Virus record (IMG/VR): IMGVR_UViG_3300027770_000039
Coordinates: 32,001-96,000 of that record
Length of the DNA stretch: 64,000 nt
Source of the DNA: a virus
Reading direction: 5' to 3' (one strand)
This document shows, in pieces, positions 3,379-53,782 of this stretch (the first letter of the stretch is position 1; each line of letters starts with the position of its first letter). The translations under genes were made by a program, and so were the position numbers. Below the pieces are notes generated by a model, which did no database searches, was not told the origin of the DNA, and was given only the letters and a program-made list of their open reading frames with translations.

Positions 3379-6300
3379 TATATTGACCTCCCCCCTGCTA
3401 ATACTTTAATTCCTTTTTGTCTTGCCATTTCTTCAATTTGTGCAAAAAATTCTTTAGGATTATTTGGTGATTGTGCAAAATGAATTGGCATTGATTGAAT
3501 AATAACTGAAGAGGATGAGGAAGATTTAGATGAGTACACATTTCCTCCGTTATTATATCTAGGAACTGAATTTATAACTGGTCCTCCTGAATTCATCATT
3601 TTAACTAAACCGCCAGTTGCCATTTTTGGCTTTGATCCAGATGCCATGTTTGCATATGGCGAGGCAAAGCCCATAAAAGCTTTACCTAACCCTGTTTTAA
3701 TTTTTCCTAAAATAGAAGTATCTGTTTTTTTATTAGTTGAATCCTCTACAATTTTTGCAGCAGTAATATAAACACTTTCAGCTTTAATATCTTTAAGAGA
3801 CTCTGCGTATTTATCTGATATCTCTCTGGCTATTTCAGTTGTAGTTTTTGGTCTTCCTCTATCGGTAGGACTTGGCATATCGAATCCAGGTATTTTTTTA
3901 GCAGCATCTACTAGTTGAGCACCAGGAAGCGAAGTTCCTTTAGATTTATTTTTTGGATCCATATCGTATAAAAAGAAATTTGAAAGCGCTGTTTGCCATT
4001 CAGACATTTTTAATTTTGTTGCATCAATTTCTTTATCAAATCTTCCTAAATTATTTCCAGCAAGAGAAGCGCTATCAGCAATTTTTTGGTTAGAGTCACT
4101 TATTCTTTTCTTTTGTTCCTCCAGAACCTTAATATCGGCAGACTCTTTGCTGTCAATAGCAGACACTGCAACGTCTGTTTGTTTTTCTTTATTAAGAGAC
4201 TTTATGTCAAGCTGAGCCATTGCTGCTTTAGACATGTCTCCAGCGGCTAATGCATCTTGATATTCTAATTGCTTTTTCTTTATTGCCGTTAGGAAGTTTT
4301 CATCCTTTTGTTGATTAGATAAAGCTTTTCTTCTAGCATCTGCTTCTTCTTTAATTTTTCTAATTTTTTCATCAATAGCTTCAATTGCTTTTCTTGAATC
4401 AATTTGAGCTTTTGCGCTTTGTCCTTTAGACGAAGCCGCTGCTTGCGCTTTTCTTTTTTCTAATTCTATAAGACTATTATTAAGTTCAAATAAAGCTCCA
4501 CCTTGAGCAATTGAATCTTTAGCAACATCTTCGGAAATCATTGCTCTTAAAGTAAATAGTGCATTTGTTGCCGCTGCACCTTTATTTAAATCTCCTGTAT
4601 AACCTTGAGCTTGTAATCTTATTTTTTGCCACATGCTAAGACCTGTGTCCTGCAATGAAAGAAATTTTTCTGCTTCTTTATTTTGGCTTATTGCATCTTT
4701 TAATATATCCGAAGTAATGCCTTTTCTAAATTTAACATTTTGAGATATGCTGTCAGATACTATTTTTTCAGCCTGAATCAAGGATAGTTTGTTCTTGCTG
4801 TTTGATATTGATTCTTCTACTGCTGCGTTTGCAGCAGCAAATGCAGTTGTTAATGCATTTCTTTGGCTTGCAAGATCTTCTGAACCAAAAACTTCATTTA
4901 AAACTTTAAAGGCTTCTGTTGCTGCGGTTGCTGCATCTTTAATTTCATTAAAATAAGAATTTCCAACAGTGCTAGATCCTGCCAAAGCAAATTTTTCAGA
5001 CATTGCAAAAGCAGCATATATTTTTTTAGTAGCTTCTTCTGCTGCCATACCGCCTGCAATCATTTGGGTTTTTAATCTTTCTGCATAATCTTTGAGGTCT
5101 GATTCTTTCATTTTATTAATTGCTGCAATGGAATCAGACATGCTGCTTTTAACTTCTTCTTTTAATTTTCTGTATTCTTCAATAGTCATTTTTATTGGAA
5201 TACCAGCAGAGTTCATACTGTCATAAAGCATTTGATTTCTTTCAATAGTATCTTTTAGAATAGACATAGAATCTTTTAATGAGGTTTTATATTCTGTTAT
5301 ATTTAGTCCAGCTTTTTTAGCTGCATCTCCAGTCAAGCCATAAGATAAAGCATTTAATCTTAGATTTTCTTGGTGAACTTTATAAGCCTTGTAAGATGCC
5401 ATTACTACTGTTGTTCCTACTGCTAGAGCTAGGTTTGTTTTAGTCAACCCTCCAACAAGACCCATAAGTACTCTAGAAACTTTAGACCCTTGTGCTGCTG
5501 AATTTGCTAGAGACAATGCATATTTATTATTTGCTCTATACGCTTTATCTAATTTACCTGCATATTTTTCGTATGCTTCATCGGATCCTGGCGCCATCTT
5601 TGATCTGGCTGCTCCCGCTCCGCCCATAAGCATTCCTGGAAGCATAAATCCAGCCATGCTTCCCATCATTCCACCAGCATCACCACCTATGTTCTGGCCC
5701 ATGCCTCCAAGCATTTGAGATCCAACCATTCCAAGTGCCATTTGTGCAATCATTCCACCAGCGTTATATCCTCTAGGAGAAGCCTGCAAGCCACCGACCA
5801 TGCCACCCCTGTTGTATCCCATTTTCCATTTTCTAGTCAGTGCTATTGAGTTTGCGTCTGGTGCTATGTACCTTGGATTTGCCCATCCTTGTGCTAATTT
5901 TTTTAATGGCATTCCTAAAAATGCTTTTCTTCCATGTGAATTTACTGAATAATTATTTGGATTTATTCCCCTTACGGCAGGATTAAATTTCATACCACCA
6001 AATGGAAGTCCTGCTGCAACGTGTCCTCTTTCTGCACCAAACACTGATTTTATTGTTTTGCCAACTCCAAAAGATGGAGATTGTTGTCTTTGTGACTCTG
6101 GGTAAAGATCCTGCATTTTTTCATAATGTGGCTTTGCCATTGATTGAGGTATTCCGCCACCAGTTGAAATAAATGGTTGTGGTACTTTTTGTCCATCAAA
6201 GCCAACATTTTTAACACTGCCTTTTTTGACACCTTTATTTTTTTCATTTCTTTGGAATCCTAATGACATTATTTCTTCTAAGAAAGAAACTGGTCTTCCT

Positions 6301-45249: not shown

Positions 45250-45626
45250 TGGAAAACGGCGCAGATAAGTTAGCTAACCAATTTAAAAATTCGGTTGAGT
45301 TAGATCACCTAACCGAAATACAATTAAAAATGGTTGAAGAAATTTTACTAAATAAATTTGGTAAAAAAATAAAATAAATAACGGCGTGTCGGCTTGACAA
45401 AATCGGAAGCGCCCACAAAAGCTGTGGGGGCATTTTGTGATTTAAGACACACTATAAAAAAACCCCGAATCCTGCGGCGTGTCGATTTGACAGACAATTC
45501 GGACATTTAGGTGTGATTAACAACACACTGCTTGAGCGTCTCATTATTTGGAATTACTGGAAAGTAACATGAAATTGTCGGTGGCTTCCGCTATAATTGC
45601 GGTATAACGAAAGGAAGTGGCTAACA

Positions 45627-45827
45627 ATGGCTAACTTATACACAATAGAAAACTTGCTAATTGGCAAGACTTACAAATCAACAACTTTGCGTGGAGAAAT
45701 TATCTCAGCAGAGAAATCTCCTCACCCAATTTGGTATGGTGATAATACCGAAGCCTATTTGGTAGAAATTAACGCTGGAACTTTCCGCAATAAATTCCGC
45801 ACAATAGCGGTGAAAGTTGGTGAGTAA
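45627..45827 (+). CDS. Small early protein (MANLYTIENLL...)
   Basis: Start re-called after the AACGAAAGGAAG RBS, downstream of the 45575 promoter. Confidence 0.65.
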   Translation: MANLYTIENLLIGKTYKSTTLRGEIISAEKSPHPIWYGDNTEAYLVEINAGTFRNKFRTIAVKVGE

Positions 45828-46351
45828 TAATGGGATACATTGAAATTTTCACCATGAATTCTGAGGGTGCTGGGTGGCTTGACCTCTCAGATATTCCCGC
45901 CGAAACTTTATTAGAATTGGAAATCGGATTATTTCAGGAAGGTGCGCTCTAGGGCGTGTCTATCCCGAAATTGTCGGTGGCTTAGGCTATAATTACATTA
46001 ACAACAACGAAAGGAAAACTAAAGTGGGAAATATACTAGAAATACTTGCCGTATCTTGTGATGAGTGTGGCGGTGCTGGCTTCGTATTTTGGGGCGATGA
46101 AAACAATTACGATGTAGAGAGTTGCGATTGCGCTCTAGAAATGTGGGGTATCTAATGTATAGACTAGATACTTACTATGATGGCGAATTAGAATATACAC
46201 ACAAATTCGCTGACGCATTACAAGCATTTGAGGCTTTTGCAAAATGTTATGATGTCGGATTTGCTAAAGAATTCGCAACATATAATTTATCTTTGCCAAC
46301 GGGCAAAATGTATACTAAAAACTTTAATCGGATTGGATTGGTGTCGCAGAA

Positions 46352-46543
46352 ATGATGACCCGAAAAGATTATATTGCTACTGCTGAAATATTAAAATATA
46401 TTAGCAATAAAACTCACCCTGCTGTTTTTTCTAAAACCGTTCATGACTTTGCGGAGATGTTTGCAAAAGATAATGAGCGATTTGATGTAACAAAATTTCA
46501 TGAAGCGAGTGGGTATCGTGTTCCTAACTTCTCTTCAAAATAA
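46352..46543 (+). CDS. Small phage protein (MTRKDY...DNERFD..KF family)
   Basis: Recognisable small-phage-protein motif; coupled to the upstream ORF. Confidence 0.65.
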   Translation: MMTRKDYIATAEILKYISNKTHPAVFSKTVHDFAEMFAKDNERFDVTKFHEASGYRVPNFSSK

Positions 46544-46975
46544 AGTAAAACGAATTCAGGAATTGCGCCGTAGTAATGCGGCGCAACCTGTTCGCAATAA
46601 AAAAAAATACACACGCAAAATAAAACATAAAAAATCTGATCTAATTTAATTGTGGATAGCTAACAACGCGGTCGGGCGTGTCGCGCCCACAAGGGTGCGG
46701 GGTCGGGCGTGTCCTTAAGAGTGTGATTAAAAACACCCTGAAAGCTGGGGTGTTTTGTAATAAATGTCAGTCAACCCTGATATACTATCAACTCAAACAA
46801 CGAAAGGTCAACTCATGAATGATATTAACTCATGCTACTGTACTAACTATTCTATTTGCACAATTTGTGTAATGGGATATTACCGTGATGAAACATTCGA
46901 CTATATGGAAACACGTATGGCCGATGCGGAAATGGGGGATTTATAATGTCGGACCCAACTGTTATAATTACTCCC

Positions 46976-47695
46976 ATGAAATTAAAAAGATCTAATGATC
47001 GCAAAGTCGCTAACCTTGTTACAAAGAATGGCAAGCAAGCAGCAATTGCTAATACTTTTGGCCTGCCTGCAGGTAAGTCATACTCATGCCCTGGCGCAAC
47101 TACTATTTGTGAGACTGTTTGCTATGCGGGAAAATTAGAAAAACTTTATAAGGCTGTTAAGGCTAATCTGCTGCACAATTGGGAATTGTTACGCAATGCG
47201 GATAATGACACAATGGTGCGTTTATTGGATGAGATGATCATAGAATTTGTTGCCGATTGTGATAAGAAGAATGCGCCTAAGTTATTCCGTATCCACTGGG
47301 ATGGCGATTTTTTTAATGATACTTATACCTATGCCTGGAAGACTATTATCGAAAAGCATTCCGATATTCAATTTTGGGTGTACACGCGGGTAAAAGACGC
47401 AGCGCTTATTCTAAAAGATATATCTAATCTATCTTTATATTATTCTACGGATGATGATAATAAAGAGATCGGCCATGAACTAAAAGTAAATGAAGGAATT
47501 CGCCTTGCTTACTTAGGAAAGACTTTTGCGCTTACCGAAAGTACAATGAAAGAATTGACGGGTAAGCCTGGCGCTAAATGTCCTGAGAATATGAAAAGTA
47601 TTCCGCTTATCTCAAGCGCAGGCAGTGCGTGTGTATCATGCGGCTTATGTGTTTATGGTAAAGCAGATATTAGATTTAGTGCTAGTAAAAAATAA
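46976..47695 (+). CDS. Gp88-like Fe-S / radical-SAM-related phage protein
   Basis: FGLPAG..YSCPGA...C...CYA, FRIHWDGDF, FWVYT and a C-terminal CP...CxxCxxC. Leaderless ATG 7 nt after TATAAT (46963-46968). Confidence 0.75.
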   Translation: MKLKRSNDRKVANLVTKNGKQAAIANTFGLPAGKSYSCPGATTICETVCYAGKLEKLYKAVKANLLHNWELLRNADNDTMVRLLDEMIIEFVADCDKKNAPKLFRIHWDGDFFNDTYTYAWKTIIEKHSDIQFWVYTRVKDAALILKDISNLSLYYSTDDDNKEIGHELKVNEGIRLAYLGKTFALTESTMKELTGKPGAKCPENMKSIPLISSAGSACVSCGLCVYGKADIRFSASKK

Positions 47696-47989
47696 ACAGA
47701 AAAGGTATAATATACTATGGAATTAATTGGAGCGCTAATTGGATTCTTTTTTGTTTTGTTTTTAATTTTTCCCCCTTTAATTTTTTTATTTGTTTTATTA
47801 TATACAAAACCTGATATAGATAACAACGGGCTTAGCGGGGAACAATAGCGCCGAAGCTGCGCCCACAAGGGTACGGGGTCGGGCGTGTCGTTACGGGTGT
47901 GATGTAAAACACCCCGAAACCCTACAGATATGTAAAGAATTGTCGGTGTATTGTGGTAAAATACTCTTATCCAACAACGAAAGGCTCTA

Positions 47990-48753
47990 ATGAAAACACT
48001 AGAACACTCTCTTAGATTTATTACAGAGTTAGATGAAACTAATCCAACCGCACAACGATTACTAGCATTAGATACAACTACGCAGGCACTATTATTAGAA
48101 GCCATGCTACACAATTTACTTGTTCCTGATATTATGCCACTTATAGATAATCTAAACTCAGGCAATTCTTACGCAACACTAAAGGTTGTGAAATAATGTT
48201 AGCAACTGCCATCGGAATACTTGACGCAACCAAAGATAGTATTTTTGACGATGAAATTATGGGATTAGCAGGCGAACTCCATGAACGCAGAAATGAACTA
48301 TCAGATGAAACTTTTGCTAAGTATTTATTTATGTATTCCACAGCCCTATCTAGCAAAGTAGCCGACCTAGTAACTAAGGTCTGCCTAAGCAAAGAGGAAA
48401 TGTCGGTGCTATGCGCTACAATAGACGAAATGGACAACCTATCAGAAACTATACTAGAAGAGGATAAATAAATGGGAAGCATAACAGCACTAGGAATACA
48501 GGATACAGTTTTGGATTTAGAAACACAATTACTCTATCACTTAAAGGGTAATCATTACCCTCCCGTTCCAGCTGAAATGGTAAAGCCTTGTATAGATGCC
48601 ATTGACGCATACTACGATAATGATTTTGATCGAGAGATAGATATGCCTAAAGTAAATGATTTTCAGATTACCTATAAGGGAAGCCTTACCGCACCAGCGT
48701 GGGCTATCGTAGAGCAACACCACCTAGAGTTTTGGCTGCCTGAATGTGATTAA
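47990..48753 (+). CDS. Three coupled small early ORFs (47990..48196, 48196..48471, 48472..48753)
   Basis: RBS and promoter upstream; the last ORF has the HL.GNHYPPVP...IVEQHHL motif seen in phage early genes. Confidence 0.65.
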
Positions 48754-48847
48754 CCTCACACAATAACTTTCTCAAATAATGAGATGCGGATACTAAATGT
48801 CGGTGGTGTCCGCTATAATACTACTAACAACAAACGAAAGGAAACAA

Positions 48848-49003
48848 ATGACCAACTCAACACTAGAGGTCGGACAGACCTACACAACTACAACCAGTAA
48901 TGTTGTAGGTATTATCAAAGCAATAGACAACCACCCAAGCGGTGTAAGTCGTATCTTGCTTGATGTAAATGGCAAAGAGCGTTGGACAAGTCTAACTAAC
49001 TAA
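48848..49003 (+). CDS. Small early protein (MTNSTLEVGQ...)
   Basis: Start re-called after AACGAAAGGAAA. Confidence 0.6.
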   Translation: MTNSTLEVGQTYTTTTSNVVGIIKAIDNHPSGVSRILLDVNGKERWTSLTN

Positions 49004-49071
49004 GCGTAAGGCGGATACCGCTTGTCGGTGGTATCCGCTATAATAAACCCACCTAACGAAAGGAAACACAA

Positions 49072-49494
49072 ATGGCAAGAGGCAAAGCAATACAGGTAAA
49101 AATACCTACTGCTAAGGTTATCAAAGCCTTAGAAACAAGATTAGCCAAACTAGAGGCTGATTACACAAAGCAAGATGAAAATGAAGCAAAGTTCCAAAAG
49201 AAATTGGAAGCATGGAAAAAAGATATTGGGAAGTGGGCTATTGCTAATTTCTCAAAGGCGCAAGACCTACGCACCAACTATCGCCAATGGAACAAAACTC
49301 TCAATGTTGATTTTGATATTGTAGTAAGCGAAAAGGATTTTCCTGCTGAACCAGTAAAGGACTACGAGCAAATCCATCAGCACTCTTATCGTGAGATGAA
49401 AGACGAAATGGAAAATGCTATCCGTATTCTTAAAATGACCGATGAGGAAACAGTTAGCGCAAGCACCTATAACGCTATTGCTCGTTATCTCTAA
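49072..49494 (+). CDS. Hypothetical coiled-coil early protein
   Basis: Own promoter and RBS; 140 aa. Confidence 0.7.
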   Translation: MARGKAIQVKIPTAKVIKALETRLAKLEADYTKQDENEAKFQKKLEAWKKDIGKWAIANFSKAQDLRTNYRQWNKTLNVDFDIVVSEKDFPAEPVKDYEQIHQHSYREMKDEMENAIRILKMTDEETVSASTYNAIARYL

Positions 49495-49566
49495 ATAACA
49501 GATGGGGGCTAGACAAAATCTAGCCCCCTATGTTATACTTTTTATCCCTACTAACAAAGGAACAAA

Positions 49567-49779
49567 ATGCGATATAGATTAGAAATCTATGATGCTAATA
49601 AATCTCACGACATTTCCATACCACTTGCTGAAAGTATCAACTATCCAAAAATTGCTAACATAGTTAAGCAAAATATAAAAAACTTTCAGGGTGATGTAAA
49701 AGCATATGTATTTGATGTAACTAATAATAAAAAGATCACAGCGGCGTATTTCCCAGAAGAAATTCATTCACTAATCTAA
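49567..49779 (+). CDS. Hypothetical protein
   Basis: TAGACA-18-TATACT promoter and AAAGGA RBS. Confidence 0.6.
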   Translation: MRYRLEIYDANKSHDISIPLAESINYPKIANIVKQNIKNFQGDVKAYVFDVTNNKKITAAYFPEEIHSLI

Positions 49780-49955
49780 AGCTTGGGGCGGGTTTTTATG
49801 TTTTCCCGCCCCATCTTCCCATGCGCCCAACCTTGGGGACTTATCCACAGCCTTACGGAAATCTGTGGAAAACCCCTGAAACCTGATGTAAAATAAGATA
49901 GACAATGTCAGTGCCAACTGTTATAATAAACCTAACAAACAAACGAAAGGATAAA

Positions 49956-50963
49956 ATGGCTCATAATCTAGAAGTGCAAGATGGTGAAGTAGCATTTGCG
50001 TTACGTGGCGCACCTGCTTGGCACAATCTTGCAAATCGCATTTTCGCTCAAGATGAAAATGTAACTACCGCAACAATGCTTGAAGAAGCAAAGTTAAATA
50101 ACTGGAATGTTCGCTTGTCGGACGTTGCAGATCACATCCCTAACACATGGAGAAATACATCAGATAATTTCTATGTGATTCGTGATAACCCATTTGATCA
50201 AGGCACTGATGTTCTATCAGTTGTTGGAAAGCGATACAAGACTGTTCAGAATGAAGAGTTATTTCAATTCGCCGACAACGTTTTAGACAATGGCGATGCA
50301 AAATGGGAATCTGCTGGCTCAATTAAAAAGGGCAAAGTTGTATTCGGCTCATTGGATATTCCTCGTGAAATCGTATTAGACCCACAAGGTGTTAACGATA
50401 GAACTAAGTTATATTTAATCGTATGGACATCACACGACGGCTCAGTTGCCGTTCAAGCAGCAATCACACCTGTTCGTGTTGTCTGCCAAAATACTCTTAA
50501 CCTTGCAATGAAGGGCGCTAAGCAATCTTTCAAGATTCGCCACACACAAACTGCTGAAGGCAGAATTGTGCAAGCCCGTCAAGCATTGGGATTAACATTT
50601 GCGTATGCAGATGAATTTCAAAAGCAAGCACAAGAGTTATTTACTCAATCAGTTACCGATAAGCAATTCTCGGATTTGATTCGCAATCTATACCCAAAGC
50701 CTGAGTCAGATGTTAAAGGCGCATTGAAGAAGTGGGAGAATAAGGTTGTTCTAATTGATGACCTTTATCATAACTCACCAACTAATTCTACAATCAAGGG
50801 AACTGCTTGGGGTGCATTTAATGCACTAACTGAGCGTTTAGATTATTACCGCACATCACGCACTGGTAATACTGAATCGCTAAATGCTGGCGCAAGTGGG
50901 TTCGACCCAATTTTAACTGCAGAGAAAAATAAAATTCTCAAAGCAGTTAAAGCCTTAGCCTAA
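49956..50963 (+). CDS. DUF932 family (phage/plasmid-like) protein
   Basis: PAWH.L, VVGKRYKTVQN, SHDGS, TPVRVVCQNTL, IRHT and TAWGAFNA.TE..D; start re-called at MAHNLEV. Confidence 0.85.
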   Translation: MAHNLEVQDGEVAFALRGAPAWHNLANRIFAQDENVTTATMLEEAKLNNWNVRLSDVADHIPNTWRNTSDNFYVIRDNPFDQGTDVLSVVGKRYKTVQNEELFQFADNVLDNGDAKWESAGSIKKGKVVFGSLDIPREIVLDPQGVNDRTKLYLIVWTSHDGSVAVQAAITPVRVVCQNTLNLAMKGAKQSFKIRHTQTAEGRIVQARQALGLTFAYADEFQKQAQELFTQSVTDKQFSDLIRNLYPKPESDVKGALKKWENKVVLIDDLYHNSPTNSTIKGTAWGAFNALTERLDYYRTSRTGNTESLNAGASGFDPILTAEKNKILKAVKALA

Positions 50964-50969
50964 ATAAAT

Positions 50970-50994
50970 GGGGCCCGAAAGGGCCCCGTTTCTT
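50970..50994 (+). terminator. Hairpin GGGGCCC-GAAA-GGGCCCC
   Basis: Perfect GC stem with a GNRA loop followed by GTTTCTT. Confidence 0.7.
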
Positions 50995-51068
50995 GGTCCA
51001 TTAGCTCAGCTGGTTAGAGCGCTACCCTGTCACGGTAGAGGCCGACGGTTCAAGTCCGTTATGGATCG
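50995..51068 (+). tRNA. tRNA-Asp(GTC)
   Basis: Acceptor GGTCCAT/ATGGATC, anticodon arm CTACC-CTGTCAC-GGTAG, GGTTCAAGTCC T arm, G discriminator. Confidence 0.93.
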
Positions 51069-51072
51069 CAAA

Positions 51073-51146
51073 GTGCCATTAGCTTAGTTGGTTAAAGCCC
51101 CGAACTCATAATTCGGTAATCGTAGGTTCAAGTCCTACATGGCACA
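51073..51146 (+). tRNA. tRNA with CAT anticodon (elongator Met or Ile2)
   Basis: Acceptor GTGCCAT/ATGGCAC, anticodon arm CCGAA-CTCATAA-TTCGG; lacks the initiator GGG/CCC stem. Confidence 0.9.
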
Positions 51147-51269
51147 CAAGCTGCGCCCAACCTTAGAGGCTCGATCAACGCTTTACGGGTGTTATATAAA
51201 ATCCCCCAAAACCTATTGCAAATGTCAGTAGCCTCTGCTACAATTACGACATTCAACGAAAGGAATAAT

Positions 51270-52043
51270 ATGCCAAATTGGGTATATAACACATTAACGA
51301 TACAAGGTCCAAAGTCTGAAATTGATTCTATTAAGGATAGACTTAATAAGCCGTTTACTTTAGCACAAGAGAATCATGGTATGGGAGATATTACTCCTAA
51401 TGGTTTCCCCACCAAAATTAAAGAGGTTACTTATAGTAATCCTGTTTTTGCTTTCTTTAATATCCACTCATATAAAGATGAAGGTATTACTGATGAAGAG
51501 TATGCCTGCCAGCCTGACCGTTCAGGTCTTGACTTAAATGACCCTGATTGGTTCCGCAAATCTGTTGAGTTTGCTAAGACTCAGAAAGATTGGTATTCAT
51601 GGAATCAATCTAACTGGGGAACTAAATGGGATGTAGCCGTATCAGATGATGACAAATATCCTGAAACCGAATTGCTTGAACACAAGTCTGAAGGTGATGA
51701 TAACTGGCTTCTATATAAATACGAGACTGCTTGGTCACCTGCTGTAACTATCTTAACTAAACTATCTAATCTTGTTCCGAACTCCCTTCTCACATTAGAG
51801 TTTGAGGAAGAGACAGGCTGGGGTGGGGAATATGAGATTGTTCGTGGCGAAGTAAAAGAATTGGCAGAATGGGATAACCGTTGCTATGCTTGCCAATCTT
51901 ATGACACATTAAGTTATTGTGAAAATGACTGTGGCGAATTCTGTTCATCTTGTAATCAAGGCTCATGGCAGGATGCAGAGGCAATGGAAAAATGTCAGAC
52001 CCACATGGTACTATTAACCACTACCGAAACGAAAGGAAACTAA
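51270..52043 (+). CDS. DUF1281/YubB ferredoxin-like family protein
   Basis: MPNWVYNTLTI...DWYSWNQSNWGTKWD...ETAWSP with a C-terminal Cys cluster. Confidence 0.8.
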   Translation: MPNWVYNTLTIQGPKSEIDSIKDRLNKPFTLAQENHGMGDITPNGFPTKIKEVTYSNPVFAFFNIHSYKDEGITDEEYACQPDRSGLDLNDPDWFRKSVEFAKTQKDWYSWNQSNWGTKWDVAVSDDDKYPETELLEHKSEGDDNWLLYKYETAWSPAVTILTKLSNLVPNSLLTLEFEEETGWGGEYEIVRGEVKELAEWDNRCYACQSYDTLSYCENDCGEFCSSCNQGSWQDAEAMEKCQTHMVLLTTTETKGN

Positions 52044-52044
52044 C

Positions 52045-53491
52045 ATGGAAGACACATACGGAGCAACAGTAACACCTGCTGTACCTGCTACATACAATCC
52101 TAGTGCACTTGTGCAATACAAGTTTATTGAAGGAGAAAATGTAACATATCCAATTGCTAAAGTTACAGACTTAGAATGGGACCTAGAACAAGGTCGACGT
52201 TCTCGTGATAACTTTAACGAACTTAAAGGTACAGTTAATGAATTAGAAGAACTTCTAGTTGAACTGTATAATCCTAATTATACAAAAGAAGAAGCGCTGC
52301 AACAAATTGCAGAACTATTTGGATTTGAACTATCAAAGACAGTTACCATAACTGGAACTATTAACTTTGAAGTAATAATGCAAGTACCACTTGATGAGGT
52401 TGAAGATTTTGATGCTCATTACAAACTTGGCGATGAACTTTCTTTAACATCTTACAATGGCGATGTTGAAGTTAATGATTGGTCAATCGAAAGCACAGAT
52501 GTGGATTGGAACTAATGTACTTTGAACTTACCGCACCCGATAGGCTGTCAATGGAGATGGCCTATTGGGATGCACAAATAATCGGACTAGACCCAACTGC
52601 AATGTCACCGTTGACTTTCAATGTTGGAACTGGTAGTATTGAGAAAGTAAGTAAGATTCGTGACAAGTATAATTTAACTGAAAGTTATACCTCAGACTAC
52701 GAACCTACTGGATACACTAGGAGATAATATGTCAGATTACAAAGATGGTTTTGACGACGGGTATAAATTTGCTCGTGAAGAGATTATCGAAAAGCTATCA
52801 GAGATTGATATTAATGATATTGATTCCTGGATTTTAGATCGTCTAGCAGAAATGATGGAAGGTAATCAACTGTGATGGCTGAAGATGTATCCCCAGTTTA
52901 TTATTGCGATAGCTGCAGCGTAGCCCGTGCATCATATCTAATTAAACTATTAGATGGTGAACTGGCATTTTGCACACATCATTATAATAAATCTAAAAAG
53001 GCCCTTGACGAAAAGGCCTATGAAGTGGTAGAATTAAATAAAACGGAAGAGTCACCTAAACTAAAAGAAATGGCGGAATAGCAATGGGAGATAGAGCAAA
53101 CTTTGGATTCGTTCAACCGAACGGACAAACAATTGTATTATACGGTCACTGGGCAGGACATCAAATGCTAGGTAAATTAGCGGACGCTGTCATTGCTGCG
53201 AGACCACGCTGGAATGATTCATCATATGCAACACGTATCGCTATTAGCAATATCATTGCTGATCAGTGGAATATGGAAACTGGATGGGGCCTATACGTAA
53301 ATGAGATTGGCGACAATGAACATAAGATTGCCATCATTGATTGGGACCAGCAAACATTCAGTCTTCATGAGCATACGGATGCACGAGATCCTTTAAACAA
53401 AGTCCGTGGCATGAATAACAAAGCGCTCTTCACAATGGACCTAACTTCATTCTGTGAGAAGTATGCATTGGAAAGATTACTAGTAGTTTAA
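52045..53491 (+). CDS. Operon of hypothetical early ORFs (52045..52515, 52515..52727, about 52729..52874, 52872..53081 Zn-finger, 53084..53491)
   Basis: Coupled ORFs with RBSs; acidic composition. Confidence 0.6.
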
Positions 53492-53503: not shown

Positions 53504-53610
53504 GAATGGTGCATCTCCTTTAGATGCTAAGTAAGGCAGGCTTTCCTTTCGTTGAGGTCCTAGCAGCCATTCATCCTAAACCCCTATGACCCTTCTGGCA
53601 TGGGGGTTTA
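53504..53610 (+). ncRNA. Candidate anti-RBS small RNA (three-way junction plus terminal hairpin)
   Basis: GAATGG/CCATTC closing stem; GCATCT-CCTTT-AGATGC hairpin; a second stem-loop exposing TTTCCTTTCGTTG; 3' hairpin TAAACCCCTATG/CATGGGGGTTTA. Confidence 0.55.
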
Positions 53611-53782
53611 GCTTTGCGCTCACGGGTGAGGGTAGCATATGCTCTTTACGGAAGTCAAATTTATTTTCCTGAAATCCTAGCATATGGACAAAGCTGGGCT
53701 CATGTGGTGTGAATCACACGGATATAGCCTATACAATGTCAGTGGTATGTTATATAATTAAGGTCCTAGCGAAAGGAAATAT

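Follow-up and report, generated by a model that had tools for sequence, protein, structure and literature searches.

We describe a new structured RNA family of freshwater actinobacterial phages: the evidence strongly supports that 53504-53572 is a real RNA gene, and the only invariant unpaired word of this RNA is exactly complementary to a tag recurring in the leaders of the early genes. The window, that is, the whole stretch of 64,000 nucleotides analyzed here, derives from IMGVR_UViG_3300027770_000039, a complete virus record of 110,973 bp with terminal repeats and a G+C content of 35%, in which the RNA is present as a single copy. Its proteins indicate an actinobacterial phage: Pfam GP88, DUF932, and DUF7455 are matched, and distant homologues occur in phages of Streptomyces, Gordonia, and Mycobacterium. 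At the DNA level, blastn and megablast returned no relatives among GenBank phages. The family belongs to uncultured freshwater actinobacterial phages that are abundant in lake viromes, our survey of IMG/VR contigs having yielded more than 200 related contigs with the same RNA.

How firmly is this RNA gene established? When the 135-aa ORF preceding the RNA served as the query, 61 and then 53 further IMG/VR loci were retrieved, and a pattern describing the RNA alone returned at least 120 additional stretches, 80 of which were examined with a covariance model (R1). This model had been built from the first, ORF-retrieved set and matched 75 of the 80 pattern-derived stretches (76 when the window is included). 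In the RNAalifold consensus, 10 of the 16 pairs show compensatory changes. Across 56 distinct rows, 94.2% of the cells of the three helices are paired, as compared to 28–46% when the partners are slid, and the helix covariation score amounts to 0.51 rather than the value of about 0.06 obtained with slid partners. P1, for instance, occurs as GAAUGG/CCAUUC, UAGGG/CCCUA, and CAAGG/CCUUG, and P2 as GCGGCU/AGUCGC, GCCGCU/AGUGGC, and GCAUCU/AGAUGC. An invariant U·G pair and the many G·U pairs indicate that the + strand is the selected one. Rfam scans of the window and ten relatives at gathering thresholds reported tRNAs only, and permissive scans gave nothing beyond chance-level matches (E > 0.7), with C4 (RF01695) not being matched.

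The sequence-only reading from which this work departed had drawn the segment as a three-way junction, transcribed from the + strand at the end of an early operon. Both aspects were corroborated: the fold is recovered in the window and backed by covariation in relatives, and the RNA at this place is genuine, conserved, and structured. Folded on its own, 53504-53610 forms the three-way junction and, 3′ of it, a strong hairpin ending in a U-rich tail (z = −3.4). The RNA would be about 110 nt long in the window phage and about 150 nt, including an extra 5′ hairpin, in most relatives. Its junction pairs and a 9-nt linker (UAAGUAAAG) are nearly invariant in the family. The second, anti-SD-like CCUUU loop that had been pointed out is present in the window (53517-53521) but not conserved, as the closest relatives read CCAUA and most other relatives carry a long extension of P2 at this site. 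The positions of all features are compiled in Table 1.

Table 1. Small RNA, proposed targets, and neighboring elements in the window (coordinates count from the first nucleotide of the window).
Feature	Position	Strand	Basis
Leader tag plus SD (AACGAAAGG), proposed targets	45606, 46006, 46799, 47976, 48833, 49055, 49942, 51255, 52028	+	Motif search
135-aa ORF, phrog_31860	53084-53491	+	Stop codon 12 nt before P1
Small-RNA three-way-junction core	53504-53572	+	MFE fold, RNAalifold consensus, covariation
Helix P1	53504-53510/53566-53572	+	Fold
Helix P2	53511-53516/53522-53527	+	Fold
Conserved linker UAAGUAAG	53528-53535	+	Conservation
Helix P3, bulged A 53562	53536-53540/53559-53564	+	Fold
Loop core CUUUCGUU, complement of leader tag AACGAAAG	53546-53553	+	Conservation, complementarity
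Terminator-like G+C-rich hairpin (53577-53610), then weak U tract; likely RNA 3′ end	53577-53619	+	Fold, terminator scan
Dispersed multipartite element copy, outside RNA	53616-53690	+	Comparison by eye
Next early promoter TGTCAGTG..TATAAT plus variant leader AGCGAAAGGAAA of gene 53783	53737-53782	+	Motif, duplex energy

Two further features of the fold deserve mention. A subgroup of relatives has a long P3 loop (e.g., L007:3495-3520), the 5′ portion of which, UUUACUUA, is fully complementary to the conserved linker UAAGUAAA. Pairing between the two would permit either a pseudoknot or a different hairpin in these relatives; both words are A/U-rich, and the pairing shows no clear covariation. 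A search of the window for a target complementary to the linker returned none. Secondly, the family consensus shares GGUGCGGCU with the 3′ end of 16S rRNA (the window reads GGUGCAUCU), yet mimicry of 16S helix 45 was rejected because this stretch forms a covarying stem.

As the sequence-only reading had noticed, the extended form of the leader tag is matched base for base by 53542-53554; the complementarity amounts to 12–13 bp in the window phage. The loop core is invariant in all 113 ORF-anchored loci that reach past the ORF (60/60 and 53/53 in the two rounds of retrieval), while the 135-aa protein drifts to about 55% identity across loci. When the pattern tolerated an altered G in the core, 120 stretches were returned, and none of the 80 examined matched the RNA model. 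In a set of 212 distinct loci (1.58 Mb), we counted 212 antisense words within the RNA and six at other places on the same strand, as against 855 copies of the sense tag on the strand of the RNA. Ensemble predictions for 105 distinct RNAs assign to UUCGUU a mean unpaired probability of 0.62–0.87, compared to 0.42 for the whole RNA, and the flanks of the core are more paired (unpaired probability 0.25–0.35). The core is thereby predicted to lie in a 7-nt apical loop that is closed by a C:G pair and contains a UUCG of the YUNR type, a motif linked to antisense RNA loops. The earlier statement that the loop exposes the whole complement was true in part: in the window, UCGUU (53549-53553) is predicted to be open (p > 0.9), whereas the adjoining CCUU forms a weak inner stem of 4 bp with GAGG. 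Like the seed of a trans-acting base-pairing sRNA, the loop is conserved, predicted to be accessible, and complementary to translation initiation regions.

The counterpart of this loop, AACGAAAGG, is found nine times on the + strand of the window (45606-52036), where the shuffled expectation is 0.38 and none of 100 shuffles reached a count of 10; on the minus strand it occurs only once, at 53545-53553. Number and positions of the nine copies had been given correctly from the letters alone, as had the ...GGAAA extension of four of them. A start codon follows 4–9 nt after every + strand copy. About 13–18 nt ahead of each copy stands a promoter-like cassette, TGTCRGTG-N8-TAnnnT, of which the window contains about 13 between 45576 and 53760, all on the + strand; in the relatives, 899 of 918 non-redundant cassettes are likewise on the strand of the RNA. 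Nine of the 14 early-promoter leaders of the window carry AACGAAAGG, which is confined to the first gene behind each early promoter and missing from internal operon genes. The cassette matches the actinobacterial RecA-independent (PafBC) promoter motif, the consensus of which is known from mycobacteria. PafBC acts through RecA-NDp (10.1101/612655). The phage encodes no WYL-domain protein, and the PafBC-driven regulon of the initial reading is supported by the motif match only.

What sets the tag apart from an ordinary SD sequence? In 642 non-redundant promoter-linked leaders of relatives, the bases before GAAAG are A (96%), A (84%), and C (86%). The distance between the tag and the −10 box varies from 13 to 18 nt in the same leaders, which argues that the three extra bases are coupled to the SD rather than to the promoter. 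In one ORF set of this genome, CGAAAG precedes 4 of 11 early genes and none of 120 non-early genes. The non-early and late genes use AAAGGAG instead, implying that the extra bases of the tag are unneeded for 16S pairing in the host; the early-class-specific tag is thus longer than such pairing needs, in agreement with the initial reading. An extended 16S tail of the host was considered as a possible cause of the tag; the late genes have a standard SD. In the accompanying genome scan, 16S 3′ ends reading ...CCTCCTTTCG instead of ...TTTCT came, among the matches listed, from Dependentiae/Babeliales, Rhodanobacteraceae (Dyella, Rhodanobacter, Luteibacter), Caldilineaceae, and others, with no actinobacterium among these matches.

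Since the core is invariant on both sides, covariation between loop and leader was examined on the flanks. Beyond the core, loops pair on average over 2.80 bp with their own leaders and over 2.16 bp with the leaders of other loop types, the own leaders being ahead in 19 of 24 loop types, although the largest type shows the opposite and the counts are not phylogenetically independent. When a G follows the core in the loop, 40% of the leaders have a C at −4, compared to 4–19% with other loop bases. This suggests a weak co-evolution of the loop and leader flanks, the core itself giving no signal. As to chance, an 8-mer antisense to at least five leaders arose in 301 of 20,000 doublet-preserving shuffles of the RNA (1.5%), a figure that concerns the window alone and compares with the nine of 14 leaders observed. 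Coincidence becomes much less likely given that, within this covarying RNA, the antisense word alone is both invariant and unpaired.

What, then, might be the role of this RNA? The reading we favor, albeit tentatively, is that it acts in trans and represses translation class-wide, its loop pairing with the tag and the SD of the tagged early first cistrons. A small, stable RNA would present its apical loop on top of the covarying three-way junction, and the loop core would anneal to the tag at the 5′ edge of the SD, overlapping the SD itself, over 8 bp in all family members and 12–13 bp in the window phage. Such pairing would occlude 30S binding and may also expose the mRNA to decay, such that translation of the tagged early transcripts would be lowered together. 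Both the encounter of loop and leader RNAs and a repressive outcome are inferred here. It is also possible, although we hold this with some reserve, that the tag serves as an 'address' at the 5′ edge of the SD, read by the RNA loop, through which the whole early class might be switched up or down. Two points weigh against an antisense function, in addition to the highly conserved junction and the tag without the RNA in DSL-LC01 (see below): with one RNA gene facing a dozen or more early promoters, stoichiometry poses a problem, and part of the complement is predicted to be held in the 4-bp inner stem in the window phage.

Alternatively, the main partner of the RNA could be a different one—a protein (possibly the product of the 135-aa ORF), the ribosome, or a host RNA—and the match to the tag secondary or incidental, for example, as mimicry of an anti-SD-like surface. 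We regard this as rather unlikely, even though several observations speak in its favor. The conservation of the junction and the linker exceeds the need of a simple antisense RNA, which hints at a protein or a tertiary partner, and the RNA is tied to the ORF, a homologue of which lies directly upstream in 107 of the 111 loci retrieved by the RNA pattern alone. The ORF product, however, has no Pfam match, and its AF2 model (pLDDT 88) matches no fold in the PDB (best Z 3.7), leaving it without a recognizable RNA-binding fold. Likewise, another main partner would leave unexplained why the one 8-mer that is both invariant and unpaired is exactly antisense to the word most often repeated in the early region, a match whose chance of 1.5% refers to the window alone and leaves the family-wide invariance uncounted.

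A third point in favor of a different partner comes from DSL-LC01, a cultured freshwater Actinomycetia phage (129 kb, 58% G+C) whose homologue of the 135-aa ORF is 44% identical. This phage has 22 early leaders of the form AACGA-CGAAAGGAC, which is the window tag with a 3-nt insertion, all of them on one strand between 24.0 and 43.4 kb of its record (L364, L365) and behind a different conserved promoter class (..TTCTAAAGATGTTATAAT..). The covariance model detected no RNA homologue in DSL-LC01, and its antisense words (five 7-mers) are at background level. A tag without the RNA implies that the tag is older or wider than the RNA and not maintained by the RNA alone; the RNA may hence exploit a pre-existing leader tag but does not explain it. 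In the soil phages Wofford and Yvonnetastic, the leader tag is absent. One of the five lies in an intergenic stretch of the DSL-LC01 record (4180-4380; L358), located after a terminator, and reads CUUUCGUUG, with CUCCUUUC 40 nt later and then ACUAGCAG. Although reminiscent of the family, this stretch was rejected as a member, as it showed no match to the model, no homology, and a word count at background.

Could the RNA instead work in cis, be it as a 3′-UTR stabilizer of the upstream operon or as an anti-SD folding on the next RBS in read-through transcripts? In the window, the RNA shows no convincing promoter of its own and follows the stop codon of the ORF after 12 nt; this copy would ride on the upstream operon. 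The same arrangement, in which an extended −10 box is absent and the RNA begins just after the ORF stop, is seen in 27 of 129 distinct relatives (21%). The leader of the next gene, AGCGAAAGGAAA of gene 53783, is moreover the best predicted partner of the loop (−25.7 kcal/mol, the lowest of 495 translation initiation regions), with part of this duplex energy being due to a palindromic CUAG common to both RNAs. In lake metatranscriptomes, one contig spans the 3′ end of the ORF and the junction. Assembled contigs from four RNA runs touch parts of 51.5-55.5 kb; they come without ends, strand, or abundance, and in some runs coverage of the RNA segment is low or absent, from which nothing follows.

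Nonetheless, we deem action in cis improbable, for in 92 of the 129 distinct relatives (71%) the RNA has a dedicated extended −10 box (TGnTAnAAT) 31–43 nt upstream, followed by the 5′ hairpin. A terminator, a promoter-upstream module of roughly 120 nt, and a full early promoter stand between the RNA and the next gene of the window. In relatives, too, an early promoter with its upstream module separates the terminator from the next gene, which is not the layout of a riboswitch or 5′ leader. Furthermore, the downstream gene varies among relatives, whereas the RNA is constant. A terminator-like hairpin and a T run follow the RNA in at least 104 of the 129 distinct relatives.

The extended −10 box that the RNA has in 71% of the relatives belongs to a class other than the early promoters, and the RNA is therefore not simply an output of the early regulon, which renders doubtful the original proposal that it provides delayed feedback. 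In most relatives the box is near-perfect (TATGNTATAAT) and sits, together with a covarying 5′ hairpin, directly upstream of the RNA (e.g., L007:3405-3447); the window and the two relatives closest to it (L001, L002) have lost both elements by deletion. On the other side of the RNA lies one copy of a dispersed element, composed of GCGCYCA plus a short hairpin .. TTACGG .. CCTGAAA (CCCTGAAA), with other copies, compared by eye, at 45409, 46683, 47859, 49823, and 51153. Several of the early promoters have a copy on their upstream side, preceded by the end of a gene or by a terminator, and the block is conserved in relatives 3′ of the RNA terminator.

The surroundings of the RNA raise yet another alternative, which we consider similarly improbable: it might be a translation-related stable RNA of a tRNA/tmRNA region, or a tmRNA relic, rather than a regulator of leaders. 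In Streptomyces phage Wofford (L356:1201-1897), the ORF homologue is followed 21 nt on by a tmRNA (tag ANSNVASAYALAA), and it is this arrangement that brings a translation-related role into play. Two distant phage lineages hence have a structured RNA gene next to the ORF, an arrangement that Yvonnetastic and DSL-LC01 do not share. The relatives checked have a conserved tRNA-Asp(GTC) some 1.4 kb upstream of the ORF, and the tRNA genes of the window (50995-51147), among which tRNA-Met adjoins tRNA-Asp, lie about 2 kb upstream. T4 provides a comparison with its stable RNAs C and D, the role of which is unknown. However, neither ARAGORN nor Rfam places a tRNA or tmRNA at the site of the RNA in the window or in relatives. 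ARAGORN reports no tmRNA in the window or in seven family relatives, but does detect that of Wofford, which in turn is not matched by covariance model R1. The RNA lacks a CCA end and a T arm, and a tag reading frame is excluded, as the loop length differs between subtypes by non-multiples of three. For this reason we also rejected a tag-peptide (tmRNA) reading of ...CUAGCAGCC, which resembles Leu-Ala-Ala codons but whose frame is inconsistent between subtypes.

Finally, that U/C-rich and A/G-rich low-complexity words match by coincidence in a segment that is merely a terminator region appears highly improbable in light of the family-wide covariation, the invariance of the core, and the strand exclusivity, even if the 1.5% from the shuffles is, for the window alone, not astronomically small.

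If our favored reading of a trans-acting repressor were true, an sRNA whose seed is directed against a tag that most early transcripts carry on their first gene would constitute a new way of timing a lytic program. Such a role would account for the conservation, in early leaders, of bases outside the SD core, and by means of the tag the early class could be told apart from late and host messages. The more than 200 contigs from lake viromes represent a ready set of natural variants, and DSL-LC01, having the tag without the RNA, a natural test bed. Should the antisense idea fail, the new and strongly supported family of structured phage RNAs would stand nevertheless.

Few phage-encoded small RNAs are known, and most of these target either one gene of the phage or genes of the host. 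One of them, the c4 antisense RNA of P1 and P7, is a compact phage RNA derived from an operon transcript, whose exposed loops pair over an RBS and block translation; by means of two loops, it controls one downstream gene pair within its own operon. The RNA described here resembles c4 (RF01695) in being phage-encoded and compact and in having a loop complementary to a sequence that overlaps the RBS. It differs in that a single loop faces a tag present in 9 of 14 early leaders and in that it has no sequence or structure match in Rfam. With the tmRNA of Streptomyces BE-cluster phages, it shares a genomic slot, directly 3′ of the homologue of the 135-aa ORF, but differs from it in size and by having neither a tRNA-like domain nor a tag frame nor a match to the model.

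Among cellular RNAs, actinobacterial 6C RNA and staphylococcal RsaE and RNAIII form stable hairpins with C/U-rich loop seeds directed against the purine-rich RBSs of many mRNAs. An unpaired, pyrimidine-rich loop facing purine-rich RBSs is likewise found in the window RNA, which in contrast is phage-borne, without a match in Rfam, and has a seed reaching 5′ of the SD into the AAC tag. Unlike the targets of 6C, RsaE, and RNAIII, this tag distinguishes one class of transcripts from all other genes.

Phage T4 has two proteins with a remit comparable to the one proposed here: RegA, a translational repressor, and RegB, an endoribonuclease that cuts early SD sequences. Early control in T4 has been reviewed (PMC2988021). 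By analogy, we propose that the window phage may shut down its early class post-transcriptionally through a feature of the RBS region. The T4 factors are proteins, whereas the specificity element in the window phage would be an RNA, with repression as its putative outcome. If true, uncultured freshwater actinophages would harbor a widespread, RNA-based equivalent of RegA and RegB.
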